In this document: piece by piece, positions 19,876 to 28,827 of the stretch
Layout of the letters: each line of letters opens with the position of its first letter
Position numbering within the stretch: the stretch's first letter is position 1
IMG/VR virus record: IMGVR_UViG_3300027659_000019
DNA length: 28,827 bases
Strand: one strand, 5' to 3'
DNA from: an uncultured virus (IMG/VR IMGVR_UViG_3300027659_000019)
Taxonomy: Duplodnaviria; Heunggongvirae; Uroviricota; Caudoviricetes
Position numbers and translations under genes: made by a program
Notes under the pieces: generated by a model
The model's database searches: none
What the model was told of the DNA's origin: nothing
What the model saw: only the letters and a program-made list of their open reading frames with translations

Positions 19876-20021
19876 CACCACAAGAGTTATGAAACAGGGT
19901 TCACGCTGTGCTAGGCTCCCAGAGCACTCAACCTTATTGACATATACACGATACGGTTTTAAGCGTAATACTAAGCAACCCATTGAGGGGTATTTAGACA
20001 TTTAGAGAAATGGTAGGGGTT

Positions 20022-22046
20022 ATGTCGTTATTTTCATTTAAGTTAGCCGAAGAGTTTGTGGCTCCGTATCGGGCAAAGAAGGCTCCGTTTGGTTATCAAG
20101 ATGCAGCAGGAAACTCAGTTGGTGAGATCACTTTCTTGCGTACCTATTCACGCCTTAAAGCAGATGGTACGAAAGAAACTTGGGTAGATGTATGTGAGCG
20201 TGTCATCAACGGGATGTACTCACTACAAAAAGATCACGCCAAGACTGCTCGACTTCCGTGGTCAGATGCTAAGGCTGCATCATCTGCTAAAGAAGCATTT
20301 GATCGCTTATGGAACTTAAAGTGGACACCACCAGGTCGTGGGCTGTGGGTTATGGGCACTCCCATTGTGAACGTTCAACGTAACTCCGCAGCACTTCAAA
20401 ACTGTGCTTTTGTATCAACAGGATCTATGACCAAGACTGACCCAGCCAAGTCCTTTGCTTTCCTTATGGAAGCATCAATGCTTGGAGTAGGCGTTGGCTT
20501 TGACGATAAAGGCGCCGATAAAGAATTCACAATCTACGCACCACAAGGAGAAACACCCTATGTCATCCCCGATACCAGAGAAGGTTGGGTTGAGTCCACA
20601 GCCACCCTCATCAATTCCTACCTCAAGCCAGATAGCAAGACTCCAGTATTTGATTACCAAGAGATCCGCTCAGCAGGTGAGCCAATCAAAACGTTTGGCG
20701 GAACAGCAGCAGGGGCAGACCCACTAGTCAAACTCCACGAGTATGTAACTAACCTGTTGCACGGCCGTGCAGGGGAGTTACTTACTCGACGAGATATCGC
20801 TGACATCGGCAATATGATCGGTGTTTGCGTAGTTTCAGGAAACGTCCGTCGTTCAGCCGAACTTCTTATTGGACGCATTGAGGACGAGGAGTTCCTTAAC
20901 CTTAAGAACTACGAAAAGTACCCAGAACGTATGACTCACGGTTGGATGTCTAACAACTCTGTGGCTGTAAACGTTGGTGATAATTTGAACGCCATAGTTG
21001 AAGGCATCAAACTTAACGGTGAGCCAGGGGTTATATGGATGGATATCTCTAAGCAGTATGGTCGCCTTGCTGATCCAATCAACAACAAGGACTGGCGTAT
21101 TGCTGGGTATAACCCTTGCGCAGAACAATCTCTTGAATCTTACGAGTGTTGTACGTTGGTTGAGACTTACTTAAACCGCCACGACAACTTGGAAGACTTT
21201 AAGCGCACACTTAAATTTGCGTACCTTTATGCCAAGACTGTAACTCTTTTACCTACCCACTGGGAAGAGACTAACGCAATTATGCAACGCAACCGTCGTA
21301 TTGGAACTTCAATCTCTGGTGTTGCAAATTTTGCAGACAACAAGGGTCTACCAGTTCTTCGTACATGGATGGATGAGGGGTACAAGACTATAAAGGCTTA
21401 CGACACCTCATACTCAGAGTGGCTTGGTATTCGTGAGTCAATCAAGATGACCACAGTCAAACCATCAGGAACAGTTTCAATTCTTGCTGGAGAATCTCCA
21501 GGAGTTCACTGGACTGTAGGCGGAAAGTACTTCAATCGTGCTATTCGCTTTGCAAATAACGATCCAATGCTTCCACTCTTTAAACTTGCTAACTACAGAG
21601 TAGAACCTGCTAGTGAGTCTCCTGATACGACTTCGGTTGTCTTCTTCCCAATTAAATCAGAGGCAAAGAGAAGTGAGAAGGATGTAAGTATTTACGAGAA
21701 GATGGCACTTGCTGCTACTGCTCAACGCTACTGGTCAGATAACTCAGTCTCAGTAACCATCTCATTTGATCCAGAAACAGAGTCCTCGGCTATTGGTACG
21801 GCTTTGCATATGTACGATGGTCAACTTAAGACTGTCTCATTCTTGCCTAGTGGTAACCATGTCTATCCTCAAATGCCTTACACACAGATCACAGCAGAAG
21901 AGTATGAAGAAAAGGGCGTGATGCAACTATTCCCAATCGACTTCTCTGGTGTCTATGCTGGTATGGCTGCTGATGCTATTGGTGAGGCTTACTGCACTAC
22001 TGATGCTTGCGAAGTAAAGTTAATAACTGATAATCAACCTAAATAA
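20022..22046 (+). CDS. nrdJ: Class II (adenosylcobalamin-dependent) ribonucleotide reductase, monomeric RTPR type
   Basis: TPPGRGLW, NCAF, GNVRRSA, NPCAEQ, TVKPSGTVS, C-terminal CTTDAC. No beta-subunit gene is adjacent. ATG 20022 follows AGGGG (20010 is an alternative start). Confidence 0.93.
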   Translation: MSLFSFKLAEEFVAPYRAKKAPFGYQDAAGNSVGEITFLRTYSRLKADGTKETWVDVCERVINGMYSLQKDHAKTARLPWSDAKAASSAKEAFDRLWNLKWTPPGRGLWVMGTPIVNVQRNSAALQNCAFVSTGSMTKTDPAKSFAFLMEASMLGVGVGFDDKGADKEFTIYAPQGETPYVIPDTREGWVESTATLINSYLKPDSKTPVFDYQEIRSAGEPIKTFGGTAAGADPLVKLHEYVTNLLHGRAGELLTRRDIADIGNMIGVCVVSGNVRRSAELLIGRIEDEEFLNLKNYEKYPERMTHGWMSNNSVAVNVGDNLNAIVEGIKLNGEPGVIWMDISKQYGRLADPINNKDWRIAGYNPCAEQSLESYECCTLVETYLNRHDNLEDFKRTLKFAYLYAKTVTLLPTHWEETNAIMQRNRRIGTSISGVANFADNKGLPVLRTWMDEGYKTIKAYDTSYSEWLGIRESIKMTTVKPSGTVSILAGESPGVHWTVGGKYFNRAIRFANNDPMLPLFKLANYRVEPASESPDTTSVVFFPIKSEAKRSEKDVSIYEKMALAATAQRYWSDNSVSVTISFDPETESSAIGTALHMYDGQLKTVSFLPSGNHVYPQMPYTQITAEEYEEKGVMQLFPIDFSGVYAGMAADAIGEAYCTTDACEVKLITDNQPK

Positions 22047-22049
22047 TCT

Positions 22050-22099
22050 AGCAATACAAAGCGAAAGCCCTGCCTTTTGGTGGGGCTTTTGCTATTGCT
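22050..22099. terminator. Probable bidirectional intrinsic terminator at the convergence point
   Basis: AGCGAAAGCCCTGCC-TTTT-GGTGGGGCTTTTGCT with outer arms AGCAATA/TATTGCT. Confidence 0.8.
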
Positions 22100-22584
22100 T
22101 ACTCTTTTGCTTGCTCTCGTGAATTAAACGCGCACATACGAGACTCGCTTAAGTGACTTTCAATTCTTTTTTTAACATCGTTAGAATCTGACATCTTTCT
22201 AACATTTGTTGAGTTGATGAACTCCCACACTACTGTCTCTAGTTTCTGATTGCAGTCAGGGCAAGGCAATACAAGGTTTTTTCTTGTAGTCTTTTTGTCT
22301 TCGTAAGTCTCAATTCTCCAGCCCAATACAACTAACTTTGTCCAAAAGATTTTTTCTATCTCAGTATTAGTAAGAGGTGTCTCTCTCCAAGGCTTACTAT
22401 CATCGAAGGGCAACTCTTCTTGCTGCCACATCTCACGCTTCTGGTGTGGCTTTGGGTATGACTTGCTAACTTGCTTGTGCTTCTCGTATGGCTTGTTAAA
22501 CTGCTCTTGCTTCTGGTATGGCTTTGCCTTCTGGTTATCCATTGAGTGATCTGACTGCCAGTCATGCATACTGCTTTTAATCAT
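22099..22584 (-). CDS. Hypothetical protein (KPYxK repeats; CPDC...H...C)
   Basis: GGGGAG RBS; ends at the terminator. Confidence 0.7.
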   Translation of the reverse strand: MIKSSMHDWQSDHSMDNQKAKPYQKQEQFNKPYEKHKQVSKSYPKPHQKREMWQQEELPFDDSKPWRETPLTNTEIEKIFWTKLVVLGWRIETYEDKKTTRKNLVLPCPDCNQKLETVVWEFINSTNVRKMSDSNDVKKRIESHLSESRMCAFNSREQAKE

Positions 22585-22593
22585 TTTGCTCCC

Positions 22594-22612
22594 CTAACTA
22601 ACTAACTAACTA
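22594..22612. repeat. (CTAA)4.75 microsatellite
   Basis: CTAACTAACTAACTAACTA. Confidence 0.9.
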
Positions 22613-22635
22613 CGTACCTGGCGGCCGCTAGTTAC

Positions 22636-22668
22636 TTCGAAGATAGCCCCGCCATTTCTGACGGGGCT
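22636..22668 (-). terminator. Terminator-like hairpin after the transglycosylase gene
   Basis: Minus strand AGCCCCGTCA-GAAA-TGGCGGGGCT (GNRA loop); the U tract is weak. Confidence 0.6.
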
Positions 22669-22679
22669 TCTCCTATTGC

Positions 22680-23276
22680 TTACTCTGTCTTTCCTAGTGC
22701 TTTTGCTTTCGCTTTTGCTAGTGCTTTTGCATGGGCTTCAGGGAACTGCTTCAGCCACTTTTTAACTACAGGGTTGCTGATGCCTTTCCATGCCTTCCAG
22801 TTCTTACCTTCATCGGTCATGTAGTACGCGATTTGGGCATTCACCACAGGGTTAAACAGTTGGGCGTTGTACTCCAAACTGAACTTTTCCCTTCGTGTTT
22901 CTCCCAAGGAATCAACCATGTTAATCTGAAACAACCCGAATGAGTTGTCTCCTGTATCTCGGTTGCCGTTGTGGGAGAGAGGGTTTCCTCTTGATTCCTT
23001 CATAGCGATAGCCCACGCATAGCGTAAGGCTTGTCCTTTGAAACCAATAGCGTGAAGCAGATCGACTAACTGCGTTTGAGTTAGTTTGTCTGCGTTCTCG
23101 TACTTGGATAAGGCTCGCTCTTGGTATTGCTTTTGGTCTTGCTTCTGCTTGATCTGTGCTTCGGCTTGCGTAGGGCTGAGGGCTGGTGGCAGTACCACTA
23201 TCCCACTTGCTACGAAGATCGCCGTAAATAGCGATCCGAATACGATCTTGCCTCTTCTTGTTAGTTTCATCATCAC
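22680..23276 (-). CDS. Membrane-anchored SLT-type lytic transglycosylase
   Basis: N-terminal LTRRG plus hydrophobic anchor; AIAMKES (catalytic Glu), GLFQIN, NAQIAY, WKAW. Confidence 0.88.
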   Translation of the reverse strand: MMMKLTRRGKIVFGSLFTAIFVASGIVVLPPALSPTQAEAQIKQKQDQKQYQERALSKYENADKLTQTQLVDLLHAIGFKGQALRYAWAIAMKESRGNPLSHNGNRDTGDNSFGLFQINMVDSLGETRREKFSLEYNAQLFNPVVNAQIAYYMTDEGKNWKAWKGISNPVVKKWLKQFPEAHAKALAKAKAKALGKTE

Positions 23277-24535
23277 TCCAAAAAGTCATTGACACTTTCT
23301 GATGCCTTTGACTGGTTGTGACGAAGGCGATGTAGGTATCGCTCTGTCGTCTTTATCGACTGATGCCCCAAGCGTTCCTTGACCTCATGCACATCTACCC
23401 CACTTTTTAGAAGTTGAGTAGCATTAGCGTGTCTGAGATCATGGGTTCTAGGACTCCAACCGATGCCTGACTTGGCTATTGCCTTGTTCCATGTAGTTCT
23501 CCATACATCTCGTGGTAGGTGACTCGTATGGTCGATGAATCGCTGTTGCTTTTGGTATGGCTTTGTCTTTTGCCTGTGCTTTCGCACCGACTCTCTACAA
23601 GCCTCACATCGGCAACGCCCATGTGTATAGGCGTACAGCGTTCCATGCTGGAACAGTTTTCCGTCTTGGGCGAATGGTCGCTTAGACATCTCTCCACGAG
23701 AACTACTAATTTTACTCGGCTCTGTCACGAGTAACCTTGAGAACAGCAAGTCATCTTTTGATAGGGCTTTTGCTATGACATAGCCCTTAATCTCCTGTAA
23801 TAGGGCTTTAGACAGCATTAAACTGCGCTTATGACCCGACTTTGTGGCTTCTACGACTAGAAACCTGCTGGTATGGCTTGACCCTAGATCGCTGACTCGC
23901 CTTTGAACATAGACTTCGCCTGTCTTTAGGTTGATGTCCTTGACCCTGATCTCGGTGGCTTCCCCGAATCGGCAACCTGATGCGACTAAGAATCGGGCGA
24001 ATAACTGAGCCCCTTCGGTCGGTAGATGCTGAATGATCGCCTTAAACTCTTCGGGCTCTACAACATTCGAGATGTCCGAATACTTCGCCTTAATACGAAT
24101 CCCATGAGTAGGGTTCTGAGTTAATTCTCCTGTATCGACTAACTGGGAGAAGGCAGACCCTAGTGATGCCTTGATCTGATTGAGGGTGGCTGAACCGACT
24201 CCCTCTGATCTCAGGGCTTGAAGTAACTTTTGAATTTTACGGGTATCGATCGAAGTTACTTTGCAATCTCCGAGAGTGGGCAGGACATACCGATCGATGA
24301 TCGACCGATAGCCCTTGCGAGTGATCGGCATGAGATCGGCGGTGGGAAGCCATGAATCGATGTAGGTTGATAGGGTAAATACAGCCCTAGAAGGCTCGCT
24401 GACACCCGATGCCTCTGCTTTTGAGGCGTGGTACATGGCATCGATCTCCGAGCCCCATGTACCTGCTGAGAGGCGTTTACCGCCCTTTCGGTAATAGCCT
24501 GTAAACCTATCTCCACGCTTTACGACATAAGCCAT
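23273..24535 (-). CDS. int: Tyrosine recombinase/integrase with Zn-finger insertion
   Basis: GCRFGE, TKSG, HDLRH, LGH, TTERY; core-binding N-terminal domain; inserted HGT...CRCEACR. Confidence 0.93.
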   Translation of the reverse strand: MAYVVKRGDRFTGYYRKGGKRLSAGTWGSEIDAMYHASKAEASGVSEPSRAVFTLSTYIDSWLPTADLMPITRKGYRSIIDRYVLPTLGDCKVTSIDTRKIQKLLQALRSEGVGSATLNQIKASLGSAFSQLVDTGELTQNPTHGIRIKAKYSDISNVVEPEEFKAIIQHLPTEGAQLFARFLVASGCRFGEATEIRVKDINLKTGEVYVQRRVSDLGSSHTSRFLVVEATKSGHKRSLMLSKALLQEIKGYVIAKALSKDDLLFSRLLVTEPSKISSSRGEMSKRPFAQDGKLFQHGTLYAYTHGRCRCEACRESVRKHRQKTKPYQKQQRFIDHTSHLPRDVWRTTWNKAIAKSGIGWSPRTHDLRHANATQLLKSGVDVHEVKERLGHQSIKTTERYLHRLRHNQSKASESVNDFLE

Positions 24536-24549
24536 GATCTTCCCCTCTC

Positions 24550-24594
24550 ATGTTACTGGTGAGTAATGTTACTGATGAGTAACTTTGATGTCAA
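24550..24594 (-). promoter_or_regulatory. SigA-type promoter of int overlapped by two palindromes
   Basis: TTGACA (24594-24589), 17-bp spacer, TAACAT (24571-24566); tandem ATGTTACTG(G/A)TGAGTA at 24550-24565 and 24566-24581. Confidence 0.8.
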
Positions 24595-24629
24595 AAAAAA
24601 GCCCCTAGCCCGATCAAGGGCTAGGGGTC
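24593..24629 (-). terminator. Intrinsic terminator upstream of int
   Basis: Minus strand GACCCCTAGCCC-TTGATC-GGGCTAGGGGC followed by T8. Confidence 0.92.
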
Positions 24630-24711
24630 AATAGTGACTAAGGGCTTAGGGAATCTGCTTATGTGCGCCTGTAGTAACTCCTAATCGCCCCAGATCAGGG
24701 CTGAGAGTTAG

Positions 24712-24939
24712 TTATGGAAAGAGAATCTCTTCCCAATCCGAATCATCGAGATTGTAGAGATCAGTTGGCAGAACCTTCCAGCGATCATCGATCGCAATAA
24801 AGTCCTCACCAATAAACCAATCAACATCAACGCCCCACTTACCAATAAATACTTTGGCGGTGTAAACATTTCCGTTCATTGGAAACTCAATAACATGATC
24901 TGTTGCTGAGGTTTGACTACTGATTACATTTGCAACCAT
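24712..24939 (-). CDS. Small acidic hypothetical protein
   Basis: GGAGA RBS; last gene before the terminator. Confidence 0.7.
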   Translation of the reverse strand: MVANVISSQTSATDHVIEFPMNGNVYTAKVFIGKWGVDVDWFIGEDFIAIDDRWKVLPTDLYNLDDSDWEEILFP

Positions 24940-24942
24940 AGG

Positions 24943-25134
24943 TTAGTTCTCCGTTTCTATTTGTGTTGTTCGATAAGAGTTCCACTCATCGATTGTTGTT
25001 TGCTTCCATAGCGGTCGATTGCCGATCATGTGATCGGGTTCGGGAAGGGTGTTGCGCTTTCGATAGGTGTAGATCGTATTGATCTTTAACCCTGTTTGTT
25101 GCGCGATGTCGGTAGTAGTAAGCCAGTCCTTCAA
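24943..25134 (-). CDS. Xis/AlpA-like HTH protein (candidate recombination directionality factor)
   Basis: LTTTDIAQQTGLKINTIYTYRKRNTLPEPD..IG.RPLW...IDEW; about 400 bp from int. Confidence 0.8.
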   Translation of the reverse strand: MKDWLTTTDIAQQTGLKINTIYTYRKRNTLPEPDHMIGNRPLWKQTTIDEWNSYRTTQIETEN

Positions 25135-25340
25135 TTCGAGTCACCAGTTTCTTGTTGATCTTGATCAGTAATCACCTCATTAATTGTGTTCTGAATACAT
25201 TCATCGATCACTTCCCACAGATTATCGTCAGAAGTAATCCACTCTCTGATCTTTAACCATTCATCATCAGTAAGCACTCTCCTAACTAATTGATCTGCCT
25301 CTTCACGATTGAATAGCACTATGTCATTTGGATTTATCAT
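25131..25340 (-). CDS. Small hypothetical protein
   Basis: Tightly packed with neighbours. Confidence 0.65.
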   Translation of the reverse strand: MINPNDIVLFNREEADQLVRRVLTDDEWLKIREWITSDDNLWEVIDECIQNTINEVITDQDQQETGDSN

Positions 25341-25526
25341 TTAATTACTCGTTTCTGAGATGTCGTTGAATTGCCAGTTGTTGTGTGTCAGTACAAGAGA
25401 ATGAAATCTCTCTTGCCCTAGTTTGATTCCTTCATCGGGTGTATCTGCTTCTACCTGAACAGTTAGAAGATCGCTTGCATAACCTTGATCCATAGTTTCG
25501 AAATGCACATTCCACCACTTAGTCAT
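25341..25526 (-). CDS. Small hypothetical protein
   Basis: Tightly packed; VQVEADTPDEG pattern is common in small phage proteins. Confidence 0.65.
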   Translation of the reverse strand: MTKWWNVHFETMDQGYASDLLTVQVEADTPDEGIKLGQERFHSLVLTHNNWQFNDISETSN

Positions 25527-25638
25527 TGTTCATCTCGTTATCGTGATCGATGATGATTACTTCGATGTCACTAGGGCATCGCACAACCTCTGCAACGCCA
25601 CCATTGACCTCTATTACTACCTGATTCTTTGCATACAT
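25519..25638 (-). CDS. 39-aa hypothetical protein (not in ORF track)
   Basis: MYAKNQVVIEVNGGVAEVVRCPSDIEVIIIDHDNEMNND; AAGGT RBS; fills the gap between neighbours. Confidence 0.65.
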   Translation of the reverse strand: MYAKNQVVIEVNGGVAEVVRCPSDIEVIIIDHDNEMNND

Positions 25639-25640
25639 AA

Positions 25641-26057
25641 CTACAACGACCTTTCTTGAATGTTGAGTGCATGATGATCGCACAAGATACTTCCCTGATC
25701 ATCACCTCTTGCATACCCCTCATACTTACAGATTTCGCAAGTGTGAACAGAACAACGATACTTTCCGTCAGTACCAATCTTTAATTCTTCGGGAGTATCC
25801 CAACCACAGAAATCGCACTCCAATCGTTTGCCGTCTAGTTTTTGATTTTCTAGCAAGCGTTCAAGTCGTGCAATCTTTCTTTCTAATTCAAGATTAGTAA
25901 GAGTAGTTCCATGTTCTTTGGGAGGTTTAATTCCTAACTTCTCACACTCTTCTACAAGTGTTTCTCGATACTCCTGTGCATAACGCAGAGATAGTCGTTG
26001 CTTTGCACGAGAGACTGCTTTGTTACGAAGTTTTTTATCTTGTTTGCTTAGTTCCAT
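25641..26057 (-). CDS. Hypothetical protein with Cys/His-rich C-terminus
   Basis: GGAGAG RBS; CDFC...CSVH.CEIC...CDHH. Confidence 0.7.
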   Translation of the reverse strand: MELSKQDKKLRNKAVSRAKQRLSLRYAQEYRETLVEECEKLGIKPPKEHGTTLTNLELERKIARLERLLENQKLDGKRLECDFCGWDTPEELKIGTDGKYRCSVHTCEICKYEGYARGDDQGSILCDHHALNIQERSL

Positions 26058-26330
26058 TTAGTACTCTCCAATCACAGATACATACTGACGATACTTTTTC
26101 TTTTCTCTACGGCGCAGTAATTGTCTTTCATGATCTGTTAGACCACCAAAGATTCCGTACTGCACTCCGTTTTCTGTTGCGAATGTCAGACACTTATTTT
26201 TTGTGACTGCATCACATTGACCACAAATTAATTTTGCTTCCCGAATCTTTTCATACTCTGTCGGGTCAGGAAAGAATAATTCAGGGTCTACACCTTGTTG
26301 ACATGGTGCATTCGTGATCTCAGTTTTCAT
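26058..26330 (-). CDS. whiB: Second WhiB-family regulator
   Basis: C...DPELFFP...AKLICGQC-x7-C...GIFGGLTDHER; ATG 26330 follows GGAG. Confidence 0.9.
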   Translation of the reverse strand: MKTEITNAPCQQGVDPELFFPDPTEYEKIREAKLICGQCDAVTKNKCLTFATENGVQYGIFGGLTDHERQLLRRREKKKYRQYVSVIGEY

Positions 26331-26661
26331 TGTTACTCCGATCGTTGAAATCATCAGGATTTTCTATTACATACTTAACGAATGAGTCCATGACATCAGT
26401 TAAATCTTCGGGTTCTAAGTCTGCATACTTCAAGAGAATCTCGATCATGTGCAGGAATCCCCAAATAAGCATTTCAGGTTCGATCTCTTTATCTTTCATG
26501 ATCGTATTGAGATGTGCATTGGCTAGATACTCCTTGATCTCTTGGGGCAGACTATCTTTGCGATCAGAATCAACCTTGAATCCACGAACGATCTTTAGAA
26601 ACTCGTTAGCGATCTTAATCGATTTGATGAGATCAGTTTGGTGTGATGATAGTTCAGTCAT
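26320..26661 (-). CDS. Helical hypothetical protein
   Basis: AAAGGAG RBS. Confidence 0.75.
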   Translation of the reverse strand: MTELSSHQTDLIKSIKIANEFLKIVRGFKVDSDRKDSLPQEIKEYLANAHLNTIMKDKEIEPEMLIWGFLHMIEILLKYADLEPEDLTDVMDSFVKYVIENPDDFNDRSNNEN

Positions 26662-26828
26662 TTATTTTCTCCTTTCATTATTTTGAGGTAGTTGCTTTCT
26701 AGTTGACGAATTAGTTTACGAGTTGTACCGAATTGATCAGCAACGCTCTGCAACGATTTGCCATGTACAAATCGCGCATTGAGTATCAGATTCTTTTCTT
26801 CTACTGTAAATAGTGATGCATTTTCCAT
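26658..26828 (-). CDS. Stand-alone sigma-70 region-4-like HTH protein, 56 aa (not in ORF track)
   Basis: FTVEEKNLILNARFVHGKSLQSVADQFGTTRKLIRQLESNYL; GAGGA RBS; ATGA overlap. Confidence 0.75.
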   Translation of the reverse strand: MENASLFTVEEKNLILNARFVHGKSLQSVADQFGTTRKLIRQLESNYLKIMKGENK

Positions 26829-26854
26829 GTTGTATTCCTCTCTAAGTTAGTGAA

Positions 26855-26975
26855 ATCAAGTAGGGGCAGGTACGACTACGCCGTAACTATCGAATGCGAT
26901 CATGATCGCCCTTCGCAGGTAAGGAGGGAGAGAATGAACAAACTCTCCATAACCCTGCGTTGACCCCTACTTGAT
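26855..26975 (-). ncRNA. Candidate multi-stem structured RNA
   Basis: Perfect 12-bp closing stem enclosing three hairpins; fills the intergenic gap. Confidence 0.6.
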
Positions 26976-26979
26976 AAAG

Positions 26980-27147
26980 TTACTTTGTAATTGTTTTTTG
27001 AACGCAGTTAAAGCAGAACCAAATAACAGGTTGCTTGCTTGAGTCGGTTATGTATTTGCCTGATGAAGTAAGTTCGTCATTACCACAATCATCGCAATTA
27101 GTTAGTTCGTGGGCTTCTACCCTACGAACGATCTGTGCGTATCCCAT
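26980..27147 (-). CDS. 55-aa Zn-finger protein (not in ORF track)
   Basis: MGYAQIVRR...CDDC...WFCFNC; AGGAG RBS; TAATG overlap. Confidence 0.7.
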   Translation of the reverse strand: MGYAQIVRRVEAHELTNCDDCGNDELTSSGKYITDSSKQPVIWFCFNCVQKTITK

Positions 27148-27410
27148 TAGTCATCTCCTAAGAATAGTGAGCCGTCTGATGCAGTTCGCACCACACGACT
27201 TTCAGGTAGTGCAGGTACAAGATCATCGATTGTGTCGTTGATTTGTCCGATACAGACATCGAGTGCATCTTCACAGGCGTTGAATGCCTTATCAAGATCA
27301 CGACCTTCAAAGTCTGTCGAATCCCACCAAGTAACTACCAGTTGTTCATCGAGTGCATTCCCATAGGTGCGTTGCAGAATCTCGATCGTCTCTTTAACTG
27401 TTGTGATCAT
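27147..27410 (-). CDS. Small acidic hypothetical protein
   Basis: GAAGGT RBS; tightly packed. Confidence 0.7.
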   Translation of the reverse strand: MITTVKETIEILQRTYGNALDEQLVVTWWDSTDFEGRDLDKAFNACEDALDVCIGQINDTIDDLVPALPESRVVRTASDGSLFLGDD

Positions 27411-27587
27411 TTAATTACCTTCCTCTACACACTCACAGGGTTGATCAGGATTAAAGTCGCAGTAGTAGCAACCACCTTTTTCACCACAAGTGGTGCAGTA
27501 ATACTCGAATTGAATCTCATCACAGCACCGCATTAATACTGTGTTGGAATCAATGTCTACTTTCCAATACTTACTTTCAGCAGTCAT
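27411..27587 (-). CDS. 58-aa Cys-rich protein (not in ORF track)
   Basis: MTAESKYW...CC...CTTC...CYYC...CEC; GGAG RBS; ATGA overlap. Confidence 0.7.
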   Translation of the reverse strand: MTAESKYWKVDIDSNTVLMRCCDEIQFEYYCTTCGEKGGCYYCDFNPDQPCECVEEGN

Positions 27588-27766
27588 TTATTTTCTCCAA
27601 TCACTTCATCGATCATCGTTGTACATGAGCCATAGCCCAACCAGTTGCCACCCTTGCCCACATAGCAGACATCACGAGTTGCATAAGTAAATAGCGATAC
27701 CAAGATCAATGCAGGAACAATGATCAGCACTATCCAACCTCTAGTAGTTAAGTTTGTTGTATTCAC
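27584..27766 (-). CDS. Small single-pass membrane protein
   Basis: GTG 27766 follows AAAGGAG; LTTRG plus hydrophobic helix; two Cys. Confidence 0.7.
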   Translation of the reverse strand: MNTTNLTTRGWIVLIIVPALILVSLFTYATRDVCYVGKGGNWLGYGSCTTMIDEVIGENK

Positions 27767-27768
27767 GA

Positions 27769-28359
27769 TCAAACACTCCTTTCCATAGCCATTTTGTATC
27801 TCCATGAGTTTATTTCTTTGTGCGTTTTAATTCTGTGGCAAGTTGAACACCTAATTACGCACTTTTTGATCTCTTTTTTAATTAGATCAAGAAGTATGTT
27901 GTTGTTAAGCGCATTCCCAATGTCAAACTTTTTACTGTGAGTATGGTCAAACTCCAAAGCCAACACATCGGTTTCACCACAATCAATGCAGGGGTGTTTA
28001 AGAAGGTAGTTAAATACAAACTCTCTTGCTTCTTTATTTCTATCCCTGTTTTGCATTCGTGAACGAATAGATACGCAAGGTTTACACGCGCTTTCGTATC
28101 CTTGATTACCGCTTTCAAACATTTTTTCTTGATAACTTTTTACTGACTTAATCTTTTTACAAGTTCCACATCTGCGTTTTCCTTGCGCCAAGAGATCAGA
28201 TTTCTCTTTCATTCTTTTAGCACTTCCTTTGCGATGTACTGAGAAGCACTTCTTACATCTAGCCCTCAATCCGTATAGACCGCTTTTATGTTTATTAAAG
28301 CGATCTAACGACAACGGAATGAAGCACCCAATACATACTTTAGTTTTCTTTTTAGCCAT
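27769..28359 (-). CDS. HNH-type endonuclease with N-terminal CxxC repeats
   Basis: CIDCGE...LEFDH...EIKKC...CSTCHRIKTH; AT-rich. Confidence 0.8.
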   Translation of the reverse strand: MAKKKTKVCIGCFIPLSLDRFNKHKSGLYGLRARCKKCFSVHRKGSAKRMKEKSDLLAQGKRRCGTCKKIKSVKSYQEKMFESGNQGYESACKPCVSIRSRMQNRDRNKEAREFVFNYLLKHPCIDCGETDVLALEFDHTHSKKFDIGNALNNNILLDLIKKEIKKCVIRCSTCHRIKTHKEINSWRYKMAMERSV

Positions 28360-28826
28360 TAAATCCCCTTCGGGCTGTACAAGCGACTAAGTGGAAGTGT
28401 TTTGTACTTTAGATCGTAGTGATTAGAAGGTGTCACGAAAGCAACAATAAATCGTGAACCAGTTGTTTCAACAATGATGCCTTTACGCAAGCGACCAAAC
28501 CCTTGAACAAACACTTGATCGTTGATTACCGCGTTGAAAGGATTGTATTGACTCATGTTTGTTGAATGCACCATACGCTCATCACAGATCGCTATTAACT
28601 GATCTGCAACCGCAACGATCTTTGCTTCAAGATCGATGCGCTTCTTTGCGAGTTTGATAGTTTTCTCAATCTTGTCTGATGAATGACTACCGCAGATCAC
28701 CGCATTCTCGCTATTCCACTTCAACGGCTGATCTGAATCTTTGCAACCTTCACGCCAAGCCCATGCCATAAAGATCGTGTCGAATTGCAGTTCACCACGA
28801 GATGCGATCTGTGATGCAGGTGCAGA
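28359..28826 (-). CDS. Hypothetical protein (5' truncated)
   Basis: Frame is open from the window edge through the ATG at 28769. Confidence 0.7.
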   Translation of the reverse strand, partial: SAPASQIASRGELQFDTIFMAWAWREGCKDSDQPLKWNSENAVICGSHSSDKIEKTIKLAKKRIDLEAKIVAVADQLIAICDERMVHSTNMSQYNPFNAVINDQVFVQGFGRLRKGIIVETTGSRFIVAFVTPSNHYDLKYKTLPLSRLYSPKGI

Positions 28827-28827
28827 A

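Follow-up and report, generated by a model that had tools for sequence, protein, structure and literature searches.

The DNA analysed here is a stretch of 28,827 nucleotides (nt) from an uncultured virus of the Caudoviricetes (IMG/VR record IMGVR_UViG_3300027659_000019), hereafter called the window, and the element in question lies on its minus strand at positions 26855-26975. With a probability of about 0.9, this element represents a genuine family of structured RNAs built on a three-way junction; the family is uncatalogued and is carried by phages and prophages of Actinobacteria. In the window the element fills the 151-nt gap at 26829-26979, which is among the few sizeable gaps of a long block of minus-strand genes. 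The evidence comes from comparison of homologous sequences, and follows up a sequence-only reading of the window that had proposed a candidate RNA at these positions.

The element is bounded by an exact 12-nt inverted repeat, ATCAAGTAGGGG at 26855-26866 and CCCCTACTTGAT at 26964-26975; the last 6.8 kb of the window contain just one other inverted repeat of 11 nt or more with arms within 250 nt. As the sequence-only reading had stated, these arms form a perfect 12-bp helix (P1), and a U-G pair lengthens it to 13 bp (26855-26867 with 26963-26975). On the minus strand the minimum free energy (MFE) fold of 26829-26985 is a four-way junction of -52 kcal/mol, compared with -37.1 ± 3.5 kcal/mol for shuffled sequences (z -4.22), none of the 200 shuffles being as stable, and the fold of the plus strand is weaker (z -3.17). 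Read 5' to 3' along the minus strand, the RNA opens with the 5' strand of P1, AUCAAGUAGGGGU (26963-26975, RNA nt 1-13), followed by the junction strand J1/2, CAA (26960-26962), which corresponds to the family consensus YAAM after the U-G pair. The P2 arm, taken from the MFE fold (26914-26959), comprises an outer helix CGCAGG/CCUGCG (26954-26959 with 26914-26919), an inner helix GGAGAG/CUCUCC (26943-26948 with 26927-26932), the loop UUUGUUCAUU (26933-26942) and an unpaired CU-rich tract, CUCCUUA (26920-26926), lying within the anti-Shine-Dalgarno-like word CCUCCUUA (26920-26927). Next comes the 5' strand of the long P3 arm, AGG GCGAU C AUG (26901-26912), which pairs with 26868-26880 and holds a conserved CAYGAYC motif; then the variable apical part of P3 (26881-26900), which in the window may alternatively form local hairpins; then the 3' strand of P3, CGU A GUCGU A CCU (26868-26880), with a conserved bulged A and a GUAYCUG word that continues into P1. 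The 3' strand of P1, GCCCCUACUUGAU (26855-26867), closes the exact inverted repeat.

Close relatives were gathered from viral and metagenome contigs by flanking-protein searches and DNA patterns, giving 17 distinct versions of the element with the window included. In all 16 versions with enough upstream DNA the element lies 4 or 7 nt past the stop codon of the same CxxC-protein gene; in the 17th, L042, the upstream DNA is too short for this gene to be read. A MAFFT alignment of this group displays compensatory changes in P1 (A-U, G-C and G-U; U-A and C-G) and in P2 (G-C, A-U and G-U; C-G and U-A), the inner P2 helix GGAGAG/CUCUCC becoming UCGGG/CCCGA, GGGG/CCCC, AGGG/CCCU and others, and the J1/2 strand CAA is invariant throughout. 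The two hairpins that the sequence-only reading had taken as further arms, GCGAU/AUCGC (a local P3) and UACGGC/GUCGUA (P4), are not conserved: among 15 distinct close relatives the outer pair of the first is broken in eight and the second is gapped in nine. RNAalifold pairs the 5' half of the local P3 with the 3' half of P4, forming one long arm. In the MAFFT alignment 100% of the cells of this long-range P3 helix are paired, with one A-U to G-C double change and two one-sided improvements in addition, and P1, P2 and long P3 together are 98.4% paired over the 17 variants, with five pairs changed on both sides.

The three-way fold lies 0-1.5 kcal/mol from the optimum in 11 of the 17 close versions (1.4 in the window), but 5.7-7.8 kcal/mol above it in the other six, and for this reason the 3' half of the fold is ambiguous from the close group alone. 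The choice is settled by the distant relatives, since these have only a single long P3 arm. Hence the conserved fold is a three-way junction, the local P3 and P4 hairpins are limited to the subgroup of the window, and the proposed four-way junction stands as the MFE fold of the window but not as the fold of the family. Variation among the close relatives is concentrated in apical P3, where 14 of 20 columns vary; P1 (4/26 columns variable) and long P3 (4/25) are more conserved than the second codon positions of the adjacent gene (9/47), in which 22/47 third positions vary.

The distant relatives were reached with a profile of the CxxC protein, which found homologues of 42-52% identity. In L065-L068 the element stands directly after the CxxC stop codon with a P1, GUCGAAUGCGAG/CUCGCAUUCGAC, that is unlike the window's and perfectly paired, and it keeps UCAAC at the junction as well as the words GAAGGAC..UCACGACC and GUACCUG, while P2 covaries and P3 is one long hairpin. 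A covariance model (R1) made from the close-group alignment and the three-way structure finds these four at E 1e-15 to 1e-17, and beyond them matches L076 and a copy in G002, a complete record of 97 kb. Its scores are 135-149 bits on the forward strand against 12-16 bits on the reverse, and exactly one match per record was obtained in the five phage records searched whole. A pattern scan built from the conserved P3 words was then run on viral contigs and on 185,579 species genomes. It matched 41 viral contigs, 18 of them previously collected; among the 23 new ones 17 were confirmed by R1, five by direct reading (P1 of 12-13 bp, UAAAA junction) and one, L134, by neither. The bacterial genomes gave 24 matches, two of which are real, namely L106 in a prophage region of a Nocardioides speluncae assembly and L094 in a metagenome-assembled genome of the Jatrophihabitantaceae; the other 22 lack a P1, fall within coding sequence of high G+C and are due to chance. 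Altogether, family members span 42% to 73% in G+C.

When five variants were compared by BLAST with 50,697 records of phage isolates, only Microcystis phage MinS1 and, through a short match, Arthrobacter phage BaileyBlu came up; the latter match was rejected, as it is not the element. The diverged MinS1 copy (MZ923504.1; L150:2442-2571) has a different P3 loop, scores below the R1 threshold and was recognised by eye from its P1, UCAAC, GAAGGAC and GUACCUG. It sits between a block with an Lsr2 gene and an AAA ATPase gene. MinS1 is recorded on a cyanobacterial host, and both its Lsr2-family gene (L150 339-1550) and the RNA copy ahead of the AAA ATPase gene are actinophage-like traits.

The sequence-only reading had named covariation among collected homologues as a check on its RNA, and such covariation is strong for the three-way structure. 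In a model-based alignment of 20 sequences 98.2% of the pairs are standard and 21 of 34 pairs changed on both sides, slid controls reaching 35-45%. With 30 sequences, standard pairs fill 97.3% of the 923 pair cells compared with 35-44% in slid controls (partners shifted by 1-3 columns), 23 of 34 pairs changed on both sides, in 175 cells, and no shuffle of 500 reaches the covariation score; these figures overstate independence, because the alignments are biased toward the structure to which they were fitted and the sequences are related, the independent lineages numbering roughly 8-10 and not 30, which has to be held against our reading. In the 30 sequences P1 is 98.7% paired with 10 of its 13 pairs changed on both sides, all five outer and all five inner pairs of P2 changed on both sides, and P3 is 99.4% paired with three covarying pairs. 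Furthermore, in the raw sequences the P1 strands are fully complementary in every group and differ between groups (AUCAAGUAGGGG, GUCGAAUGCGAG, GUUGGGUAGGGG, GUCCGGGGAG and AGGGGCGAGGCG). Three G-U pairs are conserved, and one of these never changes in the 30 sequences; all three would give C-A mismatches on the other strand and are compatible only with the gene-sense (minus) strand. The placing of a structured RNA on the minus strand is borne out by this strong covariation, by the G-U pairs and by the strand difference in the R1 scores.

The earlier suggestion that the RNA is novel also held. Indeed, Rfam 15 (4227 covariance models) gave no match for the whole window at gathering scores and none for six diverged members at E up to 1, and for region 26700-27100 at E up to 10 it gave mir-122 alone, a meaningless match of 14.5 bits against a cut-off of 70. 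ARAGORN found no transfer RNA or transfer-messenger RNA gene in the window, and full-text searching of the literature gave no description of this RNA.

Across the family P1 has 10-13 bp and ends in a U-G pair that never varies among the 30 aligned sequences. J1/2 follows the consensus YAAM, the distant groups reading UCAAC, UUAAC, UCAAA or UAAAA. P2 ranges from a plain hairpin with a loop of 9-16 nt, as seen in the high-G+C members, to a two-tier arm, and usually displays a pyrimidine-rich tract; J2/3 is 1-2 nt long and ends in A. At its base P3 pairs A-G-R with Y-C-U; beyond this come the bulged A, which is conserved, and a 5-bp helix that covaries. Its internal loop sets 5'-CAYGAYC, present in 30/30 sequences, opposite 5'-CG(N)AG, and in the distant groups a variable apical hairpin of 3-9 bp with other sequence follows. 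The 3' strand of P3 enters P1 without a linker as GUAYCUG, a word likewise found in all 30 aligned sequences. Given that there is no linker on this side, P1 and P3 are probably stacked, the 13 bp of P1 and the 8-11 pairs of the P3 base abutting on the 3' strand.

The P3 internal loop was compared with the kink-turn as defined in PMC8191799. The sequence form, i.e. a 3-nt CAY bulge, G-A opposite A-G, C.C and at least two standard pairs, occurs in 16 of 31 sequences, L067 being read by eye. It is absent where an extra U is present (the window's subgroup, L137, L119 and L094), a near-continuous helix being possible there instead, and in two high-G+C members with an extra G in the loop. A kink-turn in about half of the family is thus, judging from sequence, a lead and not a finding.

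The position of the element among genes is constant in kind, while the genes themselves vary. All of 21 loci have a same-strand ORF (open reading frame) that stops 4-13 nt ahead of P1, and the distance to the next start is usually 17-43 nt (24-28 nt in seven loci of the low-G+C groups), some members lying 170-250 nt from it. Upstream stands a small CxxC protein gene in the low-G+C groups and in L065-L068, L076, L137 and L114, and a gene for a Peptidase_M15_4 protein in L127; in the G002-like group, and as a separate case in L119, the gene that stops 4-8 nt ahead of the element is HNH endonuclease-like. Downstream there may be a sigma-4-like protein, a 104-109-aa homologue of a 113-aa protein of the window, WhiB (L119), a DUF1281_C protein (L128 and L132), a DnaB-type helicase (L106) or a scaffold-like protein (L141), so that the sigma-4 gene is not a constant neighbour among relatives. 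A strong terminator-like hairpin stands directly behind the element in the groups of L129 and L134. Whatever the flanking genes, the sequence core is kept and the element is co-oriented with the operon throughout; it is transcribed as an operon component. The suggestion that it is a dedicated cis-regulator of the sigma-4 and whiB genes fails on this ground, as the RNA precedes unrelated genes, and also on the pairing of P2 with the downstream leader, which is no better than in shuffles.

Two features of these loci deserve mention in their own right. Firstly, the HNH gene beside the element (L082:1655-2206 on the minus strand, also L126, L112, L128, L116, L132, L140 and L119) seems inserted between the CxxC gene and the element, in the manner of a homing-type insertion next to highly conserved DNA; in the window the HNH homologue sits elsewhere, at 27769-28359. 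Secondly, seven distinct relatives carry another structured element of 127-129 nt between the RNA and the sigma-4 gene (L015:1797-1924, L005:1344-1472, L007:1346-1472, L018:1794-1921, L020:1802-1930, L023:1800-1927 and L042:311-438), which is missing from the window, where its place would be at ~26845. It is closed by a covarying and very stable inverted repeat of 15-17 bp (TTGATAGAGATCGTCAA type) and has TTYCACTA at both sides, resembling an insertion with target duplication. All seven variants fold better on the anti-gene strand, by 0.7-9.4 kcal/mol, and one G-U pair fits that strand only.

What the RNA does is less certain than that it exists. Our best guess, a tentative one held at somewhat less than even odds, is a stable, self-contained, partner-binding RNA carried on the operon transcript. 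We favour it because of the single copy per record, the indifference to neighbours, the co-orientation, the stable closing helix and the core kept from 42% to 73% G+C. Long closing helices are typical of stable excised RNAs. According to this proposal the RNA would be a self-contained module and no single-gene switch. It would fold immediately on transcription, P1 clamping both ends, and would persist, or be excised by host nucleases, as a stable species of ~85-160 nt. The invariant core, made of the junction and the P3 loop, would bind a partner conserved across Actinobacteria, a candidate being a protein or the translation or transcription machinery, and the exposed CU-rich loops might offer a second contact for purine-rich (Shine-Dalgarno-like) RNA. 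The terminator-like hairpin directly after the element in two groups is what would be expected of an RNA at the 3' end of a transcript. Moreover, the single copy, the independence of neighbours and the conserved core together argue against both a gene-specific switch and simple punctuation.

Several points weigh against this proposal, in addition to the dependence of the alignments on the model. In the window no promoter or terminator flanks the element, so a free RNA would have to arise by processing: between 26300 and 27500 there is no terminator-like site and a single promoter-like one, weak and within the sigma-4 gene, promoter and terminator sites being fewer than in shuffles. One metatranscriptome (run X1) contains all sampled words of 26400-27400 in its contigs, one of which spans 24552-28827, and three others contain only pieces of 151-297 nt; such contigs give no information on strand, ends or level, and the coverage of the region as a single contig in X1 may reflect carry-over of DNA and not a discrete transcript. 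The subgroup of the window itself, with its extra U in the P3 loop, misfits a standard kink-turn. Finally, the CU tract changes position between groups, and shuffles reach the observed match length in 1-97% of trials.

The CU tract was central to the sequence-only reading, which had pointed to the anti-Shine-Dalgarno word CCUCCUUA. The word is present in the window, yet among the 17 close variants the 8-mer is unique to the window's own, and the tract reads CUCCUUA in 11, UUCCUUA in two and UGCCUUA in four. A match of at least 6 nt to the 16S ribosomal RNA (rRNA) tail word occurs in 12 of 20 representatives; some groups have it in P2, others in the apical loop of P3, e.g. ACUCCUUUC in the G002-like group. 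The CU-rich tract is hence a soft recurrent feature and no conserved site. The RNA may be a processed small RNA (sRNA) that pairs with ribosome-binding sites. P2 complementarity to the downstream leader or ribosome-binding site was not above shuffles at any of 12 loci. In Gram-positive bacteria, sRNAs of the RsaE/RoxS type and the actinobacterial 6C RNA are stable RNAs, derived from operons or 3'UTRs, that pair with ribosome-binding sites through C/U-rich loops. The present family shares with them a longer source transcript, pyrimidine-rich loops, a stable scaffold and, in two groups, a terminator-like hairpin after the element; it differs in a scaffold that is more elaborate and more conserved (three-way junction, kink-turn-like loop) and in a CU tract that is not fixed.

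Broader mimicry of the 16S rRNA 3' domain was tried and rejected. The 16S genes used came from relatives of the Nocardioides genome, and of 17 members compared with them just six had more 7-mers in common with the final 120 nt than shuffles did (shuffle fraction of 0.03 or less). All six cases stem from the GCCGUA(CC) segment, a strand of P3, and are read as chance since this strand covaries with its partner in other members. Matches of 8 to 10 nt elsewhere in 16S are close to the expected number. Window words of that length common with actinobacterial 16S rRNA include GGAGAGUUUG (26939-26948, minus strand), CCUUACCUG, GGGGUCAAC and GUACCUGC, at 26939-26948 and 26911-26919; their number is near that expected by chance for a 1.5-kb target, and most are unconserved in other groups.

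Antisense partners on the same transcript were also sought. In the window there is no complementarity of at least 11 nt and one 10-mer (24622-24631) where ~3 are expected, and a duplex-energy scan gave no outlier past the opposite-strand control; over 13 kb around the element of G002 (~12.6 kb of it transcript-downstream) there is again no complementarity of at least 11 nt. That 10-mer complements the P1/J1-2 portion of the RNA and is within chance expectation.

On the plus strand, the bases of the element read TAAGGAGG-N6-ATG and open the mini-ORF MNKLSITLR* (26934-26963), from which an antisense/peptide pair had been suggested. Both the motif and the ORF are present in the window, but the ORF is not conserved: among the 17 variants it has two codons in eight, five in two, nine in two and 14 in two, and in three it runs off the stretch examined, which gives a range from 2 to >15 codons. 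The conserved ATG follows from the P2 loop, which holds UUCAU, and the mini-ORF is judged to be a by-product of the RNA's loop and CU tract; the peptide pair is accordingly dropped.

The alternative that fares best is cis-acting punctuation of the mRNA, in which the stacked P1-P3 helix of ~21-24 bp would signal to RNase III, E or J and cleavage would part the upstream and downstream cistrons, leaving a protective structure on the mRNA end. The element does lie exactly between cistrons, 4-13 nt past a stop and usually 17-43 nt ahead of a start, with P1 and P3 joined without a linker. It recalls in this the RNase III sites of the T7 early region, irregular long helices between early-operon cistrons directly past stops. 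Those sites, however, come several to an operon, while one copy was found in each of five records here, in a branched form whose invariant junction and loop core, kept across distant hosts from 42% to 73% G+C, exceeds the needs of end protection. Punctuation therefore appears doubtful to us.

Processive antitermination of the put type, in which the nascent RNA would bind its own RNA polymerase and cause read-through of terminators or Rho-dependent sites toward regulators, xis-like and int genes, is unlikely. Like the put RNAs of HK022, of which a genome has one or two copies, the element is a self-contained folded RNA of an early operon that does not depend on the genes beside it. It was single-copy in the five records searched and shares the operon's direction in every case; in the window it precedes regulators, an excisionase-like gene and an integrase on one strand. 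A strong hairpin follows directly in two groups, a stable element with a stem of 15-17 bp follows in seven relatives, and a core conserved across hosts would suit binding of the conserved polymerase. Nevertheless, put RNAs consist of two hairpins, to which the element bears no likeness in sequence or architecture. The window moreover has no promoter recognisable beside the element, at least 1.9 kb of same-strand genes upstream of it, and no terminator-like site between 26300 and 27500.

We consider rather unlikely, too, a broader proposal of a new functional class of phage RNA, in which a three-way-junction scaffold with a kink-turn would display anti-Shine-Dalgarno-like CU loops and work in trans on machinery that actinobacterial hosts have in common, or else of a new self-processing ribozyme. 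The trans-acting variant might titrate ribosome-binding sites or the 30S subunit, or might decoy a host nuclease or factor that recognises the 16S tail, as in takeover or counter-defence.

A riboswitch or operator that responds to a ligand or protein and controls translation of the next gene, with the CU tract as anti-Shine-Dalgarno arm, is distinctly unlikely. Its attractions are the complex fold with a conserved core, a kink-turn-like loop of the kind found in several riboswitch aptamers, the short and fairly constant spacing to the start (24-28 nt in seven low-G+C loci) and the anti-Shine-Dalgarno-like tract of many members. The downstream genes are functionally unrelated, though, some members lie 170-250 nt from a start or have a terminator-like hairpin next, P2-leader pairing is no better than shuffles in 12/12 loci, and a P1 of 10-13 bp is much longer than ligand-dependent P1 helices. 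Membership among riboswitches or gene-specific cis-regulators was consequently rejected on the unrelated downstream genes, the lack of P2-leader pairing and the lack of a terminator after the element in the window.

A new class of self-cleaving ribozyme, cutting the polycistronic RNA at one edge of the element, is quite improbable. Small three-way junctions with invariant junction and loop nucleotides between phage genes are a typical setting for several self-cleaving classes, but no Rfam ribozyme model matched even at E up to 10, and no conserved candidate cleavage dinucleotide was identified. The hammerhead is a three-way junction with the core strands CUGANGA and GAA and a single H at the cleavage site; the junction strands of the family, YAAM, N-A and none, misfit this core, no hammerhead model matched, and the hammerhead was rejected.

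An element acting as DNA, such as a cruciform, a single-strand hairpin origin, a protein operator or a mobile inverted-repeat element, is very improbable: it would account for the perfect 12-bp inverted repeat, for a 12-bp palindrome (CGATCATGATCG) in the window's element and for the L106 and MinS1 copies just upstream of a DnaB-type helicase gene, but not for three conserved G-U pairs that would be C-A mismatches on the other strand, for strand-specific scores, for palindrome changes that are asymmetric and compensated in the distant P3 partner, or for a single copy at a constant kind of site without target-site duplication. A miniature inverted-repeat mobile element was rejected for similar reasons, with one match per record (5/5), no second P1 word in the window and a P1 that covaries; the flanks GTGAA and AAAGT of the window's element are not duplicated.

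Two further comparisons with known RNAs were made. The phi29 packaging RNA, pRNA (RF00044), is likewise a phage RNA of ~120 nt with a three-way junction and a closing helix that joins its ends. The family differs from it in having no Rfam match and in lying among early/regulatory or other operons and not at a genome end by packaging genes; the lineage here is moreover a WhiB-encoding actinophage with an integrase. The second comparison is with orphan structured RNAs, such as Rfam motifs of unknown function and the 10,006 candidates from viral contigs reported in PMC10690425, with which the element shares an intergenic, covarying, phage-borne fold without an assigned function in IMG/VR-type contigs. 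No listed candidate was matched to the family, whose contig numbers do not occur in the searchable supplementary tables. Of the candidates described there, DNAVirus_811, the only one with a Sigma70_r4 gene downstream, differs in being a motif of 43 nt from the human gut. By its description (47 nt, freshwater, one WhiB neighbour), DNAVirus_8169 could overlap part of the element.

If the family is real, it adds a well-supported and widespread structured RNA to the biology of actinobacterial phages, for which, to our knowledge, almost no non-coding RNAs have been characterised. Its carriers range from low-G+C lake phages to high-G+C soil-type prophages, e.g. in the Nocardioides genome. A core kept over 30 points of G+C, a single copy in five records and indifference to neighbours have been the marks of new riboswitch, ribozyme or machinery-binding classes in the past, and at 85-160 nt the element is a compact object for biochemistry. 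It is also a conserved landmark at a junction of gene swapping and homing-endonuclease gene acquisition in these phages.

In the window, which has a G+C content of ~42%, every gene from 28.8 kb down to 23.3 kb is on the minus strand; most abut or overlap, and several are small. In transcript order the block includes the HNH endonuclease-like gene (27769-28359), an 87-aa gene (27147-27410) and the gene of a 55-aa CxxC...CxxC protein (26980-27147), which has no Pfam match and whose stop codon is 4 nt ahead of P1. Past the element stands the gene of a 56-aa sigma-70 region-4-like helix-turn-helix protein (26658-26828; Pfam PF04545, E 8.5e-6), which starts 26 nt past P1. The WhiB gene (26058-26354), an excisionase-like helix-turn-helix gene (24943-25134) and a tyrosine integrase gene (23273-24535) lie further on, and the gene of the 113-aa protein mentioned above belongs to the same block. 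That the window encodes WhiB points to a phage of Actinobacteria.

The nearest virus record compared, G001, has 73% of the window's sampled 31-mers in common and leaves 20000-28827 unmatched. Since the last 8.8 kb find no match despite this sharing of words, this early/lysogeny block is a swapped module. At 24477-24581, immediately ahead of the integrase start (24535), the X1 contigs break, rejoin and continue into unlike sequence, and this may be an attachment site or a variant junction. A 247-nt X1 contig joins 27407 back to 27145, i.e. 263 nt back, about the length of the 87-aa gene; with 5-8 differences it comes from a relative, and it may be a copy that was rearranged or duplicated. A perfect 13-nt inverted repeat, CATCACAGATCGC/GCGATCTGTGATG, lies at the window's right edge (28580-28592 and 28804-28816), with its arms 211 nt apart.

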